Shown here in pieces: positions 24,120-32,103 of a stretch of 64,000 bases of DNA (position 1 is the first letter of the stretch; each line of letters opens with the position of its first letter). Both the position numbers and the translations under genes were made by a program. Under the pieces are notes generated by a model. It saw only the letters and a program-made list of their open reading frames with translations, made no database searches and was not told the origin of the DNA. Source of the DNA: Escherichia coli 042 (GTDB lineage Bacteria > Pseudomonadota > Gammaproteobacteria > Enterobacterales > Enterobacteriaceae); NCBI RefSeq assembly GCF_000027125.1, contig NC_017626.1. One strand, written 5' to 3'.

Positions 24120-25364
24120 ATGGCAAGAAAGGCGACCCCACTCACCACCACACAGATCAAAGCAGCTAAACCAGCGGAAAAAGAATACACCTTACAGGAT
24201 GGCGGCGGGCTTTTTCTCGTCATTAAGCCATCTGGTTCGAAACTATGGCGATTCAACTACTATCGACCATCGAACAAAAAACGAACAATCATTAGTTTGG
24301 GATCGCTCGATGAAGTCTCCCTGGCTGATGCCAGAAAACGCCGTAGCGAGTACAGGACGTTAATTGCGTCAGGGATTGACCCACAGCATCACGAGCGGCA
24401 AAAACGCGAAGCAGAGGCCAGAAGACAGGGCAACACGTTCGAAAATGTGGCCGCATCGTGGTACGAAATGAAAAAAAACCAGAATCTCGCCCACAATACG
24501 ATCAAGGACATCTGGCGCTCGCTAGAGAAATATGTATTCCCGTATATCGGAAACACACCGATAGATACTCTCACCGCTCGCCGCTTTGTTGAGATACTCA
24601 CGCCCATCAAGACACGTGGCAACCTGGAAACACTGAAACGCGTTTTACAGCGCATCAATGAAGTGATGGATTTTGCTGCCAACAGTGGACTGATTGACAT
24701 CAACACCGCTGCGAACGTCCGCAAGGCATTCCCTTCCCCCACCAAAAAACACATGCCAACCATCCGACCAGAACAACTACCGCAGCTAATGCACGATTTA
24801 TCGATCGCCAGCATAGAACGGCAAACCAGATTGCTGATTGAGTGGCAGTTGTTAACCGCAACCCGTCCAGCCGAAGCCTCCGCCGCACGGTGGGAAGAAA
24901 TCAACCTTGATGCGGCAACATGGACGATACCAGCCGGACGCATGAAGATGCGCCGTGATCATGTGATCCCTCTTTGCGCTCAGGCGATGGCAGTGCTTGA
25001 AGCCATGAAGCCGATTAGCGCACGAAGGGAGCATGTTTTCCCAAGTCTTAAAAATCCAGTGCAACCAATGAGCAGCCAGACAGCAAACGCAGCATTACGG
25101 CGAATGGGTTACACTGGTGTACTGGTATCTCACGGGCTACGCGCCATATTCAGCACAGCGGCGAACGAAGAAGGATTTGAGCCGGACGTAATCGAGGCCG
25201 CACTCGCACACGTGGACACGAACGAAGTTAGACGGGCATACAACCGAAGCAACTACCTGGAAAAACGTAAAGTGTTAATGTGCTGGTGGGGTGATTTTGT
25301 GGAAGCAGCCTCAACCGGAACAACCATCGCCAGCGGGCACAGGGGATTACGCGGAATAAAATAA
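24120..25364 (+). CDS. int: P4-family tyrosine integrase
   Basis: 414 aa; N-terminal arm-binding-type region (KEYTLQDGGGLFLVIKPSGSKLWRFNYY...), C-terminal catalytic region with HGLRAIFST and a tyrosine near the end (RAYNRSNY); adjacent to a tRNA gene in the same orientation. Confidence 0.85.
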   Translation: MARKATPLTTTQIKAAKPAEKEYTLQDGGGLFLVIKPSGSKLWRFNYYRPSNKKRTIISLGSLDEVSLADARKRRSEYRTLIASGIDPQHHERQKREAEARRQGNTFENVAASWYEMKKNQNLAHNTIKDIWRSLEKYVFPYIGNTPIDTLTARRFVEILTPIKTRGNLETLKRVLQRINEVMDFAANSGLIDINTAANVRKAFPSPTKKHMPTIRPEQLPQLMHDLSIASIERQTRLLIEWQLLTATRPAEASAARWEEINLDAATWTIPAGRMKMRRDHVIPLCAQAMAVLEAMKPISARREHVFPSLKNPVQPMSSQTANAALRRMGYTGVLVSHGLRAIFSTAANEEGFEPDVIEAALAHVDTNEVRRAYNRSNYLEKRKVLMCWWGDFVEAASTGTTIASGHRGLRGIK

Positions 25365-25377
25365 AATATTTAAAAAA

Positions 25378-25417
25378 TTATTGGTTCCTAATTGGTACCA
25401 ATTTGGAGCCAATTTGT
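25378..25417. promoter_or_regulatory. operator-like palindrome cluster in the int-alpA intergenic region
   Basis: ttattggttcctaattggtaccaatttggagccaatttg contains the perfect 14-bp palindrome aattggtaccaatt (25390-25403) flanked by CCAATT/AATTGG half-sites, in an AT-rich region upstream of alpA. Confidence 0.4.
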
Positions 25418-25616
25418 GTCTCTTTACTGTCTCATTTTGAGAAATATTTAAAATTCTTTTTATGTTAGAAAATTAAAAAATAACCAATCACATAACTCTT
25501 ATTAAATAATTCTTGACTTGCTTTTTTATAGATTTGTATTCTTTTTATATGTTTTTACATGTTTACCGTCATTTTCATTCAAAAAGCGGTATTTTACTGT
25601 CTATAGGAGAAATAAG

Positions 25617-25808
25617 ATGAGGGCTATTCTTTTACGACCAGAGGTCAAGGCCTTGCTACGCATTAAATCTGATTCAACCCTAACGGAGATGGTTAACAAA
25701 GGCGGGTTCCCCAAAGGATTCCGTATCGGGCTGCGTCGCATTGGCTGGTATGAAGATGAGGTACTCGCCTGGTTGAAAGAACGTGAGAGAGAAACTCGTG
25801 AAGCATAA
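25617..25808 (+). CDS. alpA: AlpA-family phage transcriptional regulator / excisionase-like HTH protein
   Basis: 63 aa from the ATG at 25617 with an AGGAGA ribosome-binding site; MRAILLRPEVKALLRIKSDSTLTEMVNKGGFPKGFRIGLRRIGWYEDEVLAWLKERE has the AlpA-like pattern (...IG.R.IGW.E.EV..WL). Confidence 0.7.
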   Translation: MRAILLRPEVKALLRIKSDSTLTEMVNKGGFPKGFRIGLRRIGWYEDEVLAWLKERERETREA

Positions 25809-26266
25809 GTGTGATTAACGCTGGCCTGATTACTATCAAGCAACAAAACAATTAAGAGAGAACATTATAAATACTGGCAAAAATGCCCAAACAGGGGCAG
25901 GTTTTCGTTCAACCATAAAAAATTATGGCTGATGTTATTATTCAGTTCAAACCGTACGAACGAATTAATTGAACTAATAGCACTTCCGTTTTAAACGGAA
26001 ACGTACAATCGCATAGCTTAAACGACAAAAGAAATATGTTGCTTACGAATAAAACAAAGGCGACCGCAGAGGGTCGCCAGAAGGCATATATTAAACTTGA
26101 ATGCATCGCCAACAATGCCATATTTCCGGCTGGTGAGCAATGTGATTTGTGTGGTGGGCACACCTTCAACACATCCGACCACATGAGCAAGAAAACGGGA
26201 TATACTCACCAAATCCCTTATAAAACGGGGATCGGGATTACCACCCCGCTGGAGTTAACGGCGATA

Positions 26267-26290
26267 CAGACGCGCCACGCGTCTTTTTTT
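26267..26290 (+). terminator. candidate intrinsic terminator inside the alpA-icd gap
   Basis: cagacgcgccacgcgtc followed by T7 (GC stem gacgcg/cgcgtc, short loop), preceded by further stem-loops at 26058-26079 and 26226-26248. Confidence 0.5.
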
Positions 26291-26454
26291 GTATCGACGC
26301 ACACGCACGCCTTATCAATGGTGGGCTGTATGGGGCTGACTTCGGTCAGGCTGGTTTCCGTTAACACCAGTTGTGGTAACCCTGTACAGTCCACCGCCAG
26401 CGAGCTTACCACCTCCTGCGGTGGGTATATCCCAACGTTAACGGAGGCTGCCAA

Positions 26455-26694
26455 ATGGCTACTATCCCTGCCCTCGCACATACTCAGAACGCCTTTATCT
26501 GGCGCTTTATCATCGTTAATCCGAGTGATTCCCGCGTCGTTCACGTCGTGGCGTCAACCGAACAGGAAGCGCGTAACCGTTGTCCGTCCGGTTGTGTTGC
26601 CGTATTCGCTGCCCGTATTCGTCAGGGGGTAAGTCATGCTCAAGCGATTCCAGATAACCGCACGCGCTGTAAATCATCAAGGCCACGTTATTGA
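26455..26694 (+). CDS. Icd-like (host cell division inhibitor-like) small phage protein
   Basis: 79-aa ORF with a GGAGG ribosome-binding site 8 nt upstream; MATIPALAHTQNAFIWRFIIVNPSDSRVVHVVASTEQEARNRCPSGCVAVFAARI resembles the Icd-like small-protein family as I remember it. The 3' end overlaps the next ORF by 58 nt in another frame, so the true C-terminus is uncertain. Confidence 0.5.
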   Translation: MATIPALAHTQNAFIWRFIIVNPSDSRVVHVVASTEQEARNRCPSGCVAVFAARIRQGVSHAQAIPDNRTRCKSSRPRY

Positions 26695-26821
26695 TATTCG
26701 GCAAAACGTGAACGCCACCAGCGTTAATGCAGCTATAGCAATATTGAAAGAAGAGTTAATCGGCTGTAGGTTCACGCAGGTGATGATCCGTGCCGTAGTT
26801 GAAGTGTCGACTGTTCATTAA
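26636..26821 (+). CDS. hypothetical small phage-island protein
   Basis: 61-aa ORF with a strong GGGGGTAAG ribosome-binding site; MLKRFQITARAVNHQGHVIDIRQNVNATSVNAAIAILKEELIG...; no function recognised. Confidence 0.45.
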   Translation: MLKRFQITARAVNHQGHVIDIRQNVNATSVNAAIAILKEELIGCRFTQVMIRAVVEVSTVH

Positions 26822-26860
26822 TCTCATTAATACAGCTTTAACAAAAACGTAATTCGACAA

Positions 26861-27148
26861 ATGAAAGCAAAAAATTCTGGCTTTACTGCCAGCGGTAAAA
26901 CTCGTCCTAAATTCATGCACGGCGATATTTACCGCGATAAATACGGCAGCACGGTAATGATTAAGGGCGTGAGTGAACGACGCATTACCTACCGCCGTGA
27001 AGGATACAAATATGACTGCGTGATGCCTGTTTATCAGTTCCAGCGTGATTTTACGCTGGTGGATCATCGTGAAACCGTAAATCAGAACCGTGCAGCAAGA
27101 TACATCCGCAAAATCTGCGAAATGATGGTTACTGGGGGCAAGAAATGA
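26861..27148 (+). CDS. hypothetical protein, translationally coupled to the primase gene
   Basis: 95-aa ORF whose TGA stop overlaps the ATG of the downstream 712-aa ORF (ATGA); basic protein; no recognisable domain. Confidence 0.4.
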   Translation: MKAKNSGFTASGKTRPKFMHGDIYRDKYGSTVMIKGVSERRITYRREGYKYDCVMPVYQFQRDFTLVDHRETVNQNRAARYIRKICEMMVTGGKK

Positions 27149-29283
27149 AACGCGCACCGAATTTAAAGCACCAGCCGAAAGACAAAATGACGGAGGTGAT
27201 TATCTTTGCGGGTAGTGATGCCTGGGCACATGCGAAAGAGTGGAGCGAATGGGCCGGAAAGCATATTGCGGCAGATGATACACATCCAGTTATTCTTGGA
27301 CCGGAACAACTGGCGAGTCTGGCAGACACGCAAATCATCGACAAAGGGCGCTATTACGTGCGCGTTTATCGTGCTGGTGAAATATCAGAGCAGCACCTTA
27401 CACAGATAGCGACACTGCTTGCAGTGGCGGGTGTGAAGGAGGCGCGTTGCTACCGCAGCTTTGTTGATCAGCAGCCGGAGGACTGGACACCGCGCATGGC
27501 TGGACTGAAGGATGATGCGGAACGCGGTAACAGTCTGGTGATCAACCTTCCGGCGAAGACAAATTTCACCGGAAATTATGATGACGAATTAAAGCCTCGT
27601 GTTGAAAGTCGCGTCGATGGTGTTTTCTGGGTAACGCCCAAAGTGGACAAGCAGTCAGGCGAAATTATCCGGCCTGAGACGTGGTTATGTTCTCCGCTTG
27701 AACTACTGGGAACAGGAACAATCGGCAAAGAGCATTACCGCGTGATGCGCTGGAAAAAACCAGCAAACCATGAGGTCATTACAATGGCGGTCCCGTGCGG
27801 AGGCATTGGTGACCGTGACGGCTGGCGGTTGCTGAAAGACCACGGCCTTAACGTGACGACCAACGGCAAATACAGGGCTATCCTGGCTGACTGGATGCAG
27901 TTAAGCGGAAACCATGAGGAATGGCAGTTAAGCACAACAACGGGGTGGCATTTTGGTGCGTACATCATGCCGGATGGTTCGATCATCGGTGAATCAGAGA
28001 AACCCATCCTGTTTACCGGAAAAACTGCCGCTGTTAATGGCTATTCCGTGGCGGGAACAGCGGAGGGCTGGCGCGATACCGTGGCACGGCTGGCTGGTGG
28101 TAATCCGTCCATGATGCTGGGTGTGGCGGTATCGCTATCTGCACCATTAATCGGGCTGGTGGGTGCTGACGGCTTCGGGGTTCATCTTTTTGAGCAATCA
28201 TCAGCAGGTAAAACCACCACACAGAACATTGCATCAAGTTTATGGGGAGAGCCGGACGCGCAACGGCTGACCTGGTACGGAACGGCGTTAGGTATCGCCA
28301 ACGAGGCCGAAGCACATAATGACGGGCTGTTACCCCTGGATGAAATAGGCCAGGCCGGAAACGCACGGGAAGTGTCCACGTCGGCTTATACGCTGTTTAA
28401 CGGTTCGGGGAAATTACAGGGGGCGAAGGACGGCGGCAACAGGGAGATAAAACACTGGCGAACAGTGGCAATCAGTACCGGAGAAATGGACGTTGAAACA
28501 TTCCTCAAAAGTGAGGGGATAAAAGTCAAGGCTGGGCAGCTTGTCCGGTTGCTTAACGTGCCGATGGAGAAGTCCACGCAGTTTCACGAATACAGCACAG
28601 GAAAGGCGCACGCAGACGCGTTAAAGGATGCCTGGACAGCAAATCACGGGGCGGCAGGTCGTGAGTGGATTAAATGGCTAGCAGCCCACCAACAGGAGGC
28701 TAAGGACACGGTAAGGGCATGCCGTGAACGGTGGCGCAACCTGATACCGGAGAGCTACGGCGAACAGGTTCACCGCGTAGGGGAACGATTCGCCATACTG
28801 GAGGCCGCGCTTGTGCTGTCAGGCAATGTTACGGGCTGGGATGTTCAGGCGTGCCGTGATGCCATTCAGCATAACTTTAATGCCTGGGTGAAGGAGTTCG
28901 GCACGGGTAACAAGGAACACAGGCAGATTATTGAACAGGCAGAGGCATTTCTTACTGCCTACGGCATGAGCAGGTTTGCGCCTGTCAATTATGACCCTGC
29001 AAGCCTGCCGATTTCAGAACTGTACGGCTACAGGGAAAGCGAGGGGCGTTACGGTGAGCCTGTTTTGTTTTACGTCCTGCCGGAGCCATTTAAATCGCAT
29101 GTGGCGAAGGGATTTAACAAGGATGCCGTAGCAAGAGCCCTTCACGAAGCCGGAATGCTGAAAAAGCCAGCCAGCGGGGAAGGATGGCAAATCAGAACAC
29201 CACGTCTTAAGCACATGAAGGGGGCACGACTAAGGGTGTACGGCCTTTTACTTGCACAGGATCATGATGATGAAGGTGGTTAA
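27145..29283 (+). CDS. primase/helicase-like replication initiation protein (P4 alpha-like; P-loop NTPase core)
   Basis: 712-aa ORF; central Walker A-like FEQSSAGKTTTQN followed by acidic DE-type motifs (LPLDEIG); the size and the iterons immediately downstream fit a satellite replication protein. An alternative start at 27187 (MTEVIIFAG) is possible. Confidence 0.65.
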   Translation: MKRAPNLKHQPKDKMTEVIIFAGSDAWAHAKEWSEWAGKHIAADDTHPVILGPEQLASLADTQIIDKGRYYVRVYRAGEISEQHLTQIATLLAVAGVKEARCYRSFVDQQPEDWTPRMAGLKDDAERGNSLVINLPAKTNFTGNYDDELKPRVESRVDGVFWVTPKVDKQSGEIIRPETWLCSPLELLGTGTIGKEHYRVMRWKKPANHEVITMAVPCGGIGDRDGWRLLKDHGLNVTTNGKYRAILADWMQLSGNHEEWQLSTTTGWHFGAYIMPDGSIIGESEKPILFTGKTAAVNGYSVAGTAEGWRDTVARLAGGNPSMMLGVAVSLSAPLIGLVGADGFGVHLFEQSSAGKTTTQNIASSLWGEPDAQRLTWYGTALGIANEAEAHNDGLLPLDEIGQAGNAREVSTSAYTLFNGSGKLQGAKDGGNREIKHWRTVAISTGEMDVETFLKSEGIKVKAGQLVRLLNVPMEKSTQFHEYSTGKAHADALKDAWTANHGAAGREWIKWLAAHQQEAKDTVRACRERWRNLIPESYGEQVHRVGERFAILEAALVLSGNVTGWDVQACRDAIQHNFNAWVKEFGTGNKEHRQIIEQAEAFLTAYGMSRFAPVNYDPASLPISELYGYRESEGRYGEPVLFYVLPEPFKSHVAKGFNKDAVARALHEAGMLKKPASGEGWQIRTPRLKHMKGARLRVYGLLLAQDHDDEGG

Positions 29284-29308
29284 TCTCTCGCGTGTAGGTT
29301 TAAAAACT

Positions 29309-29443
29309 CTTGTCCCACCTGTCCCAACCTGTGAGAAACACACATAACATACTGAATTATATTGGGTAATATCAGAAAAAGTGGGACAAGAGCGGGACAA
29401 GTTAAGGTGATTTTGGGACAAGTTAGGAGCATTTTGGGACAAG
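29309..29443. repeat. iteron cluster 1 (GGGACAAG repeats), putative origin of replication
   Basis: Inverted copies CTTGTCCC at 29309-29316 and ctgtccca at 29319-29326, an AT-rich spacer, then four direct GGGACAAG copies at 29383-29390, 29394-29401, 29415-29422 and 29436-29443; immediately downstream of the primase gene. Confidence 0.6.
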
Positions 29444-29519
29444 TCAGCAGGCGTTATTTTTTGCCTGGCTGGTGGACATTAAAAATCCAACCAACATTTA
29501 AAACCGGAGAGCAGACAAT

Positions 29520-29945
29520 ATGACGGCACAAATATCAGCTTACGGGCGGTTGGTGGCTGACCCGCAGTTAAAAACCACCAGCAAGGGAACACCAATGGCG
29601 CTGGTGAGTATGGCTGTTCCCCTTCCGTGCAGTCAGGCATATGACGGAACAGCGACGATGTGGTTATCCGTCCTGGCGTTTGGCAGACAGGCCGATGCAC
29701 TGGCAAAACACCAGAAAGGCGAACTGGTGAGCATGGCGGGTAACATGCAGATAAGCCAGTGGACAGACCAGAACGGGGAAATGCGGCAGGGCTGGCAGGT
29801 CATCGCAGACAGCGTAATCAGTGCGCGAACCGTGCGACCAGGAGGCAGGAAAGGACAGCAAGGGCAGGCTACTGACGCACTGAACAGAACAAAGCAGCAG
29901 ACGGGCCAGCAGGATGACCCGTATGAGGACGAAATACCATTTTAA
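29520..29945 (+). CDS. ssb: single-stranded DNA-binding protein (SSB-like, OB fold)
   Basis: 141 aa; SSB-like layout with conserved aromatic positions, a Gly/Gln-rich linker and the acidic tail ...DDPYEDEIPF that resembles the E. coli SSB C-terminal DDDIPF. Confidence 0.75.
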   Translation: MTAQISAYGRLVADPQLKTTSKGTPMALVSMAVPLPCSQAYDGTATMWLSVLAFGRQADALAKHQKGELVSMAGNMQISQWTDQNGEMRQGWQVIADSVISARTVRPGGRKGQQGQATDALNRTKQQTGQQDDPYEDEIPF

Positions 29946-29980
29946 CTGCCAGTGGATTCACTAACAGAGGTTAACAAATA

Positions 29981-30517
29981 ATGACTACACTGACTATTAG
30001 CAGAAAACCGAAAGGCATTTACGGCATACCACAGAAAAAGACACAGACGACACAGCAGCAGGATAAAACCACATCAGCGCATAAAGTGATACCCGGCAAT
30101 CAGAACGCACAGCAGAGCCGCAAACAGAAGCCCACAGGGGCGACACCGTGGCGGCATATGACCAAACGCCAGGGCAAAAACCGCAGGCGCGTTAACCGTC
30201 TTATTGAACTATGGCCTGAATTATTCAGCCTGGAATCACCGAAGCCGCTTAAGGTAGGAATATTTGAAGACCTGATACAGGATATTGCCGTCAGGGCGCT
30301 GGCTTTTGGGTCAGGGGCATTACGTGCGGCGCTAGCATCTTATGCTCATTCTCCGCGTTATTACCGTGCCTTAATGGCTGGTGGCGTGCGTTACGATCTG
30401 AATAGCCAGCCATGCGGCGAGGTGACACAACAGGAACAGCAGGACGCGGAAGCACGACTGATGGCACTGAAAGAGAAGCGCAAACGTAAGTCGAACAAGG
30501 AGCAAGCTGGCGTATGA
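29981..30517 (+). CDS. FinO/ProQ-family RNA-chaperone-like protein
   Basis: 178 aa; basic Q/K-rich N-terminus, then LIELWPELFSLESPKPLKVGIFEDL...RYYRALMAGGVRYDLNSQPCGEV, which resembles the FinO/ProQ N-terminal domain signature; assignment from memory only. Confidence 0.5.
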   Translation: MTTLTISRKPKGIYGIPQKKTQTTQQQDKTTSAHKVIPGNQNAQQSRKQKPTGATPWRHMTKRQGKNRRRVNRLIELWPELFSLESPKPLKVGIFEDLIQDIAVRALAFGSGALRAALASYAHSPRYYRALMAGGVRYDLNSQPCGEVTQQEQQDAEARLMALKEKRKRKSNKEQAGV

Positions 30518-30798
30518 GTATGATTCACGACAGCAAAGCGGAAGATCTGGAGGCTAAAGGCCTGTACCGGAGAGCGGCAGCCCGATGGGCTGAGGTCATG
30601 CAACAGGTGAACACCGATAAGGAGCGCGAACAGGCAGTAAAGCGTCGCGCGAAATGTATCCACAAGGCAGCACGTTCGCCCGTCATGCTGGATAATTTCG
30701 GGGGCTTGAGAGAGGCAGCAAACCGCACACAGGCGGATATGGGGATAGAAATCGCAAAATCTGTCTGGCGGAACTACCAGACAGACAAGGTTTTATAG
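30514..30798 (+). CDS. PerC-family transcriptional regulator-like protein
   Basis: 94 aa; AEDLEAKGLYRRAAARWAEVM matches the PerC/Pch-type motif (AE.LE..GLWRRAA.RW..VM); start overlaps the previous stop (ATGA coupling). Confidence 0.55.
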   Translation: MSMIHDSKAEDLEAKGLYRRAAARWAEVMQQVNTDKEREQAVKRRAKCIHKAARSPVMLDNFGGLREAANRTQADMGIEIAKSVWRNYQTDKVL

Positions 30799-30854
30799 TG
30801 GCAGTTCTGCATTATTTTTTGTGTTATTGAGTTGTAGAGCGTTTCAGGAGTTTT

Positions 30855-31064
30855 TTGAATCACATGAACGTTTCGCTGGTGGATATTCTTGACAAGTTGC
30901 AGCCAGGCCGACGCGTGCCAGCTCGCCGCAGTGCCTGGCATCTTCCGTACATCGTCTTTCTCGAACGGCGCGGAAACGATTTGATTGCGTTGAATCCCGT
31001 CACAAAGGATAGCGTTACGCTATCTCCTGAGAGTCTACTAGCCACAGACTGGGAGTACTGCTAA
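30855..31064 (+). CDS. hypothetical protein
   Basis: 69-aa ORF with a CAGGAG ribosome-binding-like site upstream; last ORF before the ~0.9 kb non-coding iteron region; no recognisable motif. Confidence 0.3.
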   Translation: MNHMNVSLVDILDKLQPGRRVPARRSAWHLPYIVFLERRGNDLIALNPVTKDSVTLSPESLLATDWEYC

Positions 31065-31597
31065 ACACAAACGCATCGAGGGTGCTGGCGTGTTGCCAGC
31101 CCCACCCCCTCCGAAATGATCCCCCAAAAAGTGCAAAATGATCCCCCATTAACGAACAGAAAACAAACAAAGAGCAACAAATAATCATTATTTACAATTC
31201 TTGACAAAAACACCCCCTATTTATAACCCTACCAAATTTAAAATTACATCTACAAAACAATAAGTTACAAAATCAGCAACGGATCATTTCGGAAAAAACG
31301 GTTAGTCCCTTTTTCGAAAAGGGATCATTTTGTTGCTTAAACTCATATGCGGATTACATATCAATACGCTAGTGATAGCCGTTCTGGAATGCCACAGAAA
31401 CGCGCTGTAATCGATTCTGGCGCAATTAGCTGTGCTAGGTAATGATTTACCTATCTGGGGATGTTGCGCACGTCTGGATTGCGTTACCACCGAAGATTGT
31501 GCGCATATGGTGGCTGTTACGGTGGCCTCCCGACAACGCAAAATTGCGGCGGCACAGTCGGTTTACCGCGCTAACACGGCTTGATTCACTCGCTCGA

Positions 31598-31717
31598 CTT
31601 GTCCCACCTCCCCCCCCAACTTGTCCCAAAACAGCCTAGACTTGTCCCACCTTACCTAATTTATTTCTAACAAAATCAATTTGTTAGGTGCTGGTGGGAC
31701 AGGTGGGACGGGTGGGA
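31598..31717. repeat. iteron cluster 2 (CTTGTCCC x3 and GGTGGGAC x3 flanking an AT-rich spacer), putative second cis-replication site
   Basis: CTTGTCCC at 31598-31605, 31618-31625 and 31640-31647; inverted GGTGGGAC(A/G)G at 31692-31699, 31701-31708 and 31710-31717; followed by (TA)n at 31729-31740. Confidence 0.6.
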
Positions 31718-31998
31718 CGGGTGGTTTTGTATATATATATACGAAAAATTGCATTCAGGAGGGGGGCGAAATTCCTGCAATCCATTACTTATGGAACTGT
31801 CCGCCCCGTCAAATTTTTACGCCCGCGCAATTAAAAAAATGCGTCACGCAGGTGGGCATGATGCCGATATGCTTGTCGGGTTCAGCTTTTTAAGGCGGCT
31901 GTAGATGTCAGGTTATCCGTGCTCATCCACCAGCCAGCTTCATAGCGGATAGCCGGAAAATGGTAACGGTTAAAGCTGTACATTTTTGCAGCAAATCA

Positions 31999-32023
31999 TT
32001 TTAGTTATACGTTTAGATATACG
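31999..32023. repeat. right boundary direct repeat (putative attR)
   Basis: ttttagttatacgtttagatatacg, 23 of 25 identical to 24034-24058. Confidence 0.5.
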
Positions 32024-32103
32024 ATTTCAAAACTCAATTAATCTACATCTTTAAAATCATGCAGTTACAGAATCAATTAAACTACTCTCGTGGCCAAAAA
32101 TCC

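Follow-up and report, generated by a model that had tools for sequence, protein, structure and literature searches.

The window (the whole 64,000-nucleotide stretch of Escherichia coli DNA that was analysed) carries an island of ~8.0–8.2 kb flanked by yejM, tRNA-Pro(GGG), yejO, narP and ccmH, where an insertion of ~8 kb at positions 23916–32084 is missing from K-12. In identical RefSeq copies, the genes run in the order integrase, AlpA-type HTH regulator, ash pseudogene, Icd-like and hypothetical genes and, further along, DUF4222, DUF927, SSB, ProQ/FinO and PerC; PHROG and NCBIfam matches agree with the RefSeq annotation of the island genes. The DUF927 gene, rep (27145–29283, plus strand; Pfam DUF927, 1.7e-46), is an intact ORF of 712 codons in the window and encodes a predicted initiator-helicase of 712 aa. 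A first array of short repeats (array 1) begins 26 bp past the rep stop codon (29281–29283). A second (array 2) lies ahead of a cos-like packaging site (31758–31837), which matches the cos-site annotated in the Stx phage phiP27 at 79.5% identity (E = 1e-8).

The island has an int gene, an alpA-type activator, a unidirectional operon that includes rep and the att site of a phage-inducible chromosomal island (PICI); it falls within the PICI size range of 7.5–15 kb and, as is characteristic of such elements, is without a full set of phage genes. Its inner ends are marked by an attL-like repeat, TTTTTTTAGTTATATGTTTAGTTATACGG (24031–24059, plus strand), and an attR-like repeat, TTTTAGTTATACGTTTAGATATACGA (31999–32024, plus strand). 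Table S1 of PMC6092414 lists an att core, TTTGTAGTTATACGTTTGTAGTTATACGG, for PICIs between yejM and luxR, which the attL-like repeat resembles. Because of the gene order, the phiP27-like cos and the inner repeats that resemble the published yejM–luxR att core, we classify the host element, by its sequence, as a small cos-type PICI. At a coverage of at least 80%, this island is found in 52 of 5,426 complete E. coli genomes (~1%); an array of its class (W-type) is present in 75 of the 5,426 and one of the sister class in 91.

Our first placement of the island ends was at the 3′ end of tRNA-Pro, from the empty site in K-12, and was given up for the inner repeats in view of the published PICI att core. 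Two stretches absent from K-12 lie outside the att-like repeats, at 23916–24030 and 32025–32084, and 32085–32101 repeats the 3′ end of tRNA-Pro imperfectly. The two outer stretches suggest a nested or older insertion at proL.

Within 26213–26401, just upstream of the icd-like ORF, Rfam detects isrK (52.9 bits; gathering threshold 50) and the P4-type C4 antisense RNA (77.7 bits; gathering threshold 45), and the island therefore appears to hold a P4-style RNA immunity region in a PICI-type setting. The DUF4222 ORF (26861–27148) overlaps the start of rep by 4 bp (ATGA). ORFs of this kind stand ahead of the initiator gene in PICIs whose initiators are of three types (DUF927, 'DNA primase family' and RepA helicase), and their product may be a conserved replication accessory.

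Anatomy of the two repeat arrays

Array 1 opens with a tight iteron pair on the minus strand (29309–29325), composed of an exact GGGACAAG at 29309–29316 and a copy with one mismatch, GGGACAGG, at 29318–29325. The two are 9 bp apart and start at +26 and +35 from the rep stop codon. An AT-rich spacer of 56 bp follows (29327–29382), with 30% GC against 48.9% for the whole island. Around array 1, duplex stability falls to its lowest in the spacer, in the 20-mers within 29344–29365, at −19.1 kcal/mol (about the 1st percentile of the island, whose 20-mers average −26.8 kcal/mol with a standard deviation of 2.9), and we regard the spacer as a candidate DNA-unwinding region. Beyond it, four direct iterons of the form (T/C)GGGACAAG occupy 29383–29443 on the plus strand, with the GGGACAAG copies at 29383–29390, 29394–29401, 29415–29422 and 29436–29443. 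Their starts are 11, 21 and 21 bp apart, so that they are helically phased, and a T-tract (ATTTTGGGACAAG) stands ahead of the last two. The original prediction had described two inverted copies before an AT-rich 55-bp spacer, followed by four direct copies at 11- and 21-bp spacing; all of these elements were recovered, the spacer measuring 56 bp and one of the inverted copies carrying a mismatch.

Exact copies of GGGACAAG number 8 in the 64-kb window against 1.4 expected, and none of 100 shuffled sequences reached that count. All 8 are confined to two clusters of ~135 and ~125 bp (29309–29443 and 31598–31722), and the second of these makes the earlier label 'array 1' an apt one. A scan of both arrays for GATC was negative, and no match to the IHF consensus was found in array 1. 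In the eight E. coli copies compared, array 1 is near-uniform, with too little variation to show selection. In the copy from E. coli MB51 (L087, 3000–3250), one exact extra 11-bp unit, GTGGGACAAGT, brings the direct iterons to five, and in three other E. coli copies (L088, L090 and L092) the first direct iteron or iterons carry the change GGGGCAAG.

Array 2 comprises three exact inverted iterons (CTTGTCCC; 31598–31648, minus strand) whose starts are 22 and 21 bp apart, an AT-rich spacer of 46 bp and 30% GC (31650–31695) with one IHF-consensus match (AATCAATTTGTTA, 31674–31686), and a tight triple of degenerate iterons, GGGACAGG, GGGACGGG and GGGACGGG, set 9 bp apart (31696–31721, plus strand). 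The tract TTTTG(TA)6CGAAAAA comes directly after (31724–31747) and, at −17.7 kcal/mol, has the lowest duplex stability of the region. The phased iterons do not differ among six E. coli copies of the island; a poly-C run (31609–31617) and the (TA)6 tract (31729–31741) vary in length among E. coli copies, with the adjacent iterons unchanged. The module at 31724–31934, which includes the cos-like site, is 87–91% conserved in the island of E. coli M21170 (L093), whose iteron class differs, and its first ~75 bases (31724–31800) are matched in 239 E. coli genomes. Between array 1 and array 2 lie 2.2 kb with ssb, proQ/finO, perC and small ORFs.

Site positions and repeat classes in related islands

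Array 1 was compared with the corresponding region of 80 loci from a scan of viral contigs (Rep 62–93% identical) and of further loci from E. coli genomes. All 82 relatives examined have a 7–9-mer in multiple copies within 600 bp after rep. In all classes, the sites stand at similar offsets from the rep stop codon, at ~+26 and +35 in one orientation and at ~+100, +111, +132 and +153 in the other; further sites across classes are one near +186, two near +210 and +231, and three near +285, +294 and +303. All relatives inspected share the position of the AT-rich gap. The repeat itself falls into about seven classes: GGGACAAG; GGGACAAC/GGGACGAC; GGGATAAG; TGCGGGTTA; GTGGGTTA; GTTGGTTCA; and CGTGGTTCA. 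Fixed positions combined with a changing sequence are, on this comparison, the signature of a protein-binding array that co-evolves with its binding protein. The original prediction had proposed looking for the octamer in related elements, and what that search yields is repeats at matching offsets in the 82 relatives with a sequence specific to each class.

These data bear directly on whether the repeats might be a product of chance or a decaying relic, such as the origin remnant of a defective island. Decay does occur among the E. coli copies: rep is a pseudogene in L091, and others have a mutated first iteron or a truncated ssb with foreign cargo. In this window, however, rep is intact over its 712 codons, the repeats are far above chance, and across the 82 relatives their positions are conserved and their sequence co-varies with the Rep C terminus, which leaves a relic hardly credible.

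The genes downstream of the array vary among the relatives: ssb in some, a hypothetical gene with perC and capsid genes in others, and defence-like cargo in others again. This variation is relevant to a second reading, according to which the repeats would be operators through which Rep or an island regulator controls ssb–proQ–perC, or would serve termination or attenuation of rep, and would not be an origin. Array 1 does lie within the 236-bp gap between rep and ssb, and iteron-binding plasmid initiators often autoregulate through their own sites. Yet the genes that follow the array differ widely among the relatives, scans of 29200–29600 for a sigma-70 promoter or a terminator consensus were negative, array 2 is of the same class and distant from any such gene start, and the homologous region of the PICI EcCICFT073 has been tested for origin function (discussed below). 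We therefore consider a purely regulatory array very unlikely; an operator role could coexist with origin function.

In some islands (L088, L090 and L004), array 1 is followed by a truncated ssb and then by defence-like cargo, in which a DEAD/DEAH helicase is paired with either a GIY-YIG nuclease or a class I SAM-dependent DNA methyltransferase. This position, just past the origin, has the look of a hotspot for cargo exchange.

The Rep protein and its C-terminal domain

In the 712-aa Rep, Pfam finds DUF927 alone, with no Toprim and no zinc ribbon. Sequence matches in the PDB include the replication initiator of SaPIbov1 (8tch, 9e-15) and the SCCmec helicase Cch (5dgk). A full-length AlphaFold model, built from an alignment of 113 homologues, has a pLDDT of 91.3, and Foldseek searches with it return Cch 5dgk at 2e-23 with a TM of 0.79 and SaPIbov1 Rep 8tch at 6e-22 with a TM of 0.70, where TM is the target value and nearly whole target chains are aligned. 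Judged from its sequence and its predicted fold, Rep is an initiator-helicase of the SaPI-Rep/Cch (DUF927) type and not a demonstrable primase. The original prediction had placed the array immediately 3′ of a primase gene. The position holds, with 26 bp between stop codon and array, whereas the primase gives way to a protein in which DUF927 alone was found.

The N-terminal part of Rep is variable in the family. A relative of 919 aa, which is 61% identical over residues 146–707, has a primase zinc ribbon and Toprim upstream of DUF927. In the place of these, residues 1–145 of Rep (27145–27580) form an alpha/beta domain of ~145 residues that is unrelated to the N terminus of the 919-aa protein, has no match in Pfam and, by eye, is devoid of the Toprim acidic motifs. 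This domain is mosaic among relatives, with identities from 30 to 100%. The N-terminal ~145–160 residues of Rep are also 42% identical to the N terminus of the EcCICFT073 Pri-Rep, and no similarity between the two proteins is seen past residue 160.

The C-terminal part, by comparison, tracks the repeat class. We computed the identity per region over all pairs of 77 Reps and asked how well it separates pairs of the same class from pairs of different classes. The AUC is 1.000 for residues 591–712, against 0.607 for the N terminus and 0.823 for the helicase core. In two loci with TGCGGGTTA repeats (L005 and L007), Rep is ~100% identical to the Rep of this island over residues 1–590 and 22–52% identical over 591–712. 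On the strength of this correspondence between C-terminal identity and iteron class, we propose residues ~591–712 (DNA ~28915–29280, plus strand) as the putative iteron-recognition domain.

The same boundary is visible in the DNA. Aligned with L005 and L093, the island is homologous (92%) up to 28950 and again (81%) from 29498, where ssb and proQ lie, so that the non-aligning piece, 28951–29497, corresponds exactly to the Rep C terminus plus array 1. A second non-aligning segment, 31452–31723, contains array 2 and is likewise set in homologous DNA; relative to L093, the flanks of this module are 84% identical upstream and 87–91% downstream, and the module itself is replaced, in each element by one that fits the class of its Rep. 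By these alignments, the Rep C terminus, array 1 and array 2 have been replaced together between lineages. There is homology on both sides of the swapped segments, and the link between repeat class and Rep C terminus therefore does not stem from co-inheritance with the downstream genes.

By comparison of the lineages, then, the C-terminal domain of Rep probably determines which iterons are recognised. SaPI Reps bind their iterons through a C-terminal winged-helix domain (PMC9371898), and by analogy and from the model we infer that the C-terminal domain of Rep is winged-helix-like. If recognition does reside there, Rep binding would be class-specific, with TGGGACAAG distinguished from TGGGACAAC or TGCGGGTTA. 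A model of the C-terminal 138 residues alone, from an alignment of 19 sequences, had a pLDDT of 44 and was discarded.

Layout of the probable origin and comparison with known systems

In 56 of 83 loci, the twelve sites stand in one block of ~310 bp in which arrays 1 and 2 are contiguous. The block consists of two modules, each made of iterons, an AT-rich spacer and inverted iterons, and the two are arranged as a pseudo-dyad. The counterparts of array 2 in these contiguous origins are a phased part at ~+186 to +235 and a triple at +285, +294 and +303, and the TATATA-CGAAAA motif that follows array 2 also occurs in contiguous origins of several classes and in L093. In this island, arrays 1 and 2 are separated by 2.2 kb of cargo genes. 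A further 26 relatives have module 1 alone, followed by ssb, within 4 kb of rep, and a search of the TGCGGGTTA/ssb loci for a second array found none up to 4 kb from rep. In the complete TGCGGGTTA-class island of E. coli M21170, module 2 lies 10.9 kb downstream, beside the (TA)n–cos module. Set against the contiguous loci, array 1 corresponds to one half of the ~310-bp origin usual in the family and array 2 to the other. The split may mean that array 1 alone is insufficient or, equally, that it is the accessory half.

Among known origins, the closest in setting are those of other PICIs. According to PMC6092414, the initiator gene of Gram-negative PICIs is always followed directly by an AT-rich region between two iteron sets, and both the position 3′ of rep and the iteron sets around an AT-rich region are found here. 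The same paper reports that the rep–ori region of EcCICFT073 drives plasmid replication, with rep and ori mutants also tested in a thermosensitive plasmid (Fillol-Salom 2018, PMC6092414). The island shares with EcCICFT073 the order int, alpA, icd-like, DUF4222, rep, ori, ssb/perC, cos. We mapped the EcCICFT073 ori as a tight 9-bp pair (+15 and +24), an AT spacer and inverted plus further copies of GGTAGA(C/T)A. That iteron differs from the one described here, and the origin is contiguous there, whereas array 2 is 2.2 kb away in this island. The initiators differ as well, in that the helicase core and C terminus of the EcCICFT073 Pri-Rep are of another family ('DNA primase family protein'). Five PICIs inspected from Table S1 of PMC6092414 have other Rep types, none of them DUF927. 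Array 1 belongs to the PICI replicon family, and origins of its kind have already been published.

The initiator itself is more akin to that of the SaPIs. In these elements the ori follows rep directly, and iterons that point in opposite directions flank its AT-rich region (PMC9371898); SaPIbov1, SaPI1 and SaPI5 resemble the island in having a homologous DUF927 initiator, an ori 3′ of rep and opposed iterons. SaPI iterons are 5–6 bp long and 6–12 in number, in contrast to a core of 8–9 bp (TGGGACAAG) and 12 sites in two modules here. The short penta- or hexanucleotide iterons in one contiguous origin that mark SaPIs are thus not what this island has. SaPIs also reside in Gram-positive hosts; the present Rep has the extra N-terminal domain of ~145 residues, which is not a recognisable primase, and the origin here is split.

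Satellite P4 offers a third comparison, for which we mapped the repeats and the crr and ori regions on the annotated P4 record. P4 likewise has octamer repeats in both orientations, including pairs 9–10 bp apart. Of its two repeat clusters, one is directly 3′ of the replication gene and the other at a distance of 4.7 kb, as against 2.2 kb in this island and 10.9 kb in that of M21170. A P4-type immunity region (isrK, C4 RNA and icd-like) is a further shared feature. The repeats differ, however, the type 1 repeats of P4 being TGTTCACC and GGTGAACA and that of the island GGGACAAG. P4 crr is a duplicated unit of 120 bp, sid, psu and delta of P4 are absent from the island, and BLASTP detects no similarity between P4 alpha and Rep (E = 1.3). 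P4 is, on these grounds, an analogue in layout and not a relative. The earlier likening of array 1 to the P4 ori iterons, with a different repeat sequence, is sound for the layout and for the difference in repeat, and fails as kinship.

Iteron plasmids such as pSC101, R6K, RK2, F and P1 also have helically phased repeats beside an AT-rich region that are bound by their own initiator. Their iterons are direct repeats of ~17–22 bp, and a small winged-helix Rep recruits DnaA and DnaB at origins in which DnaA boxes are present. The island differs from these in its helicase initiator, in repeats of 8–9 bp arranged in inverted sets and in having no match to the DnaA box consensus (TTWTNCACA) in array 1 or array 2.

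Taken together, the anatomy, position and evolutionary behaviour of array 1 support a replicon origin whose initiator is encoded alongside and binds to it. The original prediction had seen in it the arrangement expected of such an origin, and this is borne out by the anatomy, the offset from the stop codon and the co-variation with the Rep C terminus. Very probably, array 1 is the half nearer to rep of the origin from which this 8-kb cos-type PICI, inserted beside tRNA-Pro between yejM and yejO, replicates.

A reading that differs only in which half melts is that array 1 is an accessory cis element comparable to P4 crr and serves as an enhancer, as a landing pad for Rep or for handcuffing or copy control, with melting at array 2 and the (TA)6 tract. 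In P4 the tasks are divided in this way, between crr directly 3′ of the alpha gene and an ori at a distance of 4.7 kb that is built from the same 8-bp repeats. In this island, the (TA)6 tract beside array 2, at −17.7 kcal/mol, is less stable than the array 1 spacer at −19.1 kcal/mol, and array 2 is linked to cos in two lineages. However, 26 relatives have only array 1 within 4 kb (in the one that was followed, array 2 is 10.9 kb away), and array 1 has by itself the full grammar of iterons, AT spacer and inverted iterons known from the validated EcCICFT073 ori and from SaPI oris. We therefore regard an accessory array 1 as unlikely, though the strongest of the competitors, and favour array 1 as the rep-proximal half of the origin.

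For array 1 as an origin half, we infer Rep binding, melting and helicase loading, together with a functional meaning of the split, as follows. A helper phage would induce the island, and the rightward operon (alpA through DUF4222–rep) would be expressed. Rep would act as a hexameric helicase of the SaPI-Rep/Cch (DUF927) type that loads itself, and would bind the TGGGACAAG repeats through its winged-helix-like C-terminal domain. The repeats point away from the 56-bp spacer, with the tight pair on one side and the four copies on one helix face on the other; Rep assembled on both flanks would melt the spacer and load itself. Host enzymes would then copy the excised circle, and the circle would be packaged through cos.

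More tentatively, with the odds somewhat against it, we suggest that in one E. coli PICI sub-lineage the ~310-bp origin has been split by cargo into two self-contained modules of iterons, AT-rich spacer and iterons, one rep-side and one cos-side and 2–11 kb apart, that both are functional targets of Rep and that they are exchanged with the Rep C terminus as a three-part specificity set. That both modules are still Rep targets is suggested because both are exchanged together with the Rep C-terminal domain. If so, the island would have either a looped bipartite origin like P4 ori/crr or two origins that fire in opposite directions, and P4 and this sub-lineage, whose initiators are unrelated, would have arrived at the split layout separately. 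Cargo such as ssb, ProQ/FinO, PerC and defence-like genes would then be inserted at the gap between the two halves of the origin. A limited literature search found no description of this split layout or of a joint replacement of the Rep C terminus with both arrays, and only the split P4 ori/crr-like layout is moderately new.

These results identify a probable replication origin and its putative initiator for a PICI family common in E. coli, in which the gene annotated as a 'primase' would encode a SaPI-Rep-like helicase. The roughly seven classes of Rep C terminus and iteron include near-isogenic Reps that differ only in their last 120 residues, a set that could be used to learn how self-loading helicases read origins. 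The classes could also be used to predict replication incompatibility or cross-activation between co-resident satellites. If the split origin is functional, it would extend the P4 ori/crr idea to PICIs and explain where these islands take up cargo.

The octamer itself is not diagnostic: viral contigs contain 59 matches to GGGACAAGNNNGGGACAAG, about the number expected by chance on a rough estimate (16 specified bases), and no relative of this Rep is encoded in the sequence examined of these contigs. Some of the matches are real-looking iteron arrays of unrelated elements, and the octamer thus recurs in other replicons. Arrays of the GGGACAAG type in four such viral contigs (L110, 14353–14503; L111, 1925–2053; L147, 53–181; L142, 6324–6432) have an origin-like layout, with direct sets, an AT-rich gap and inverted sets.
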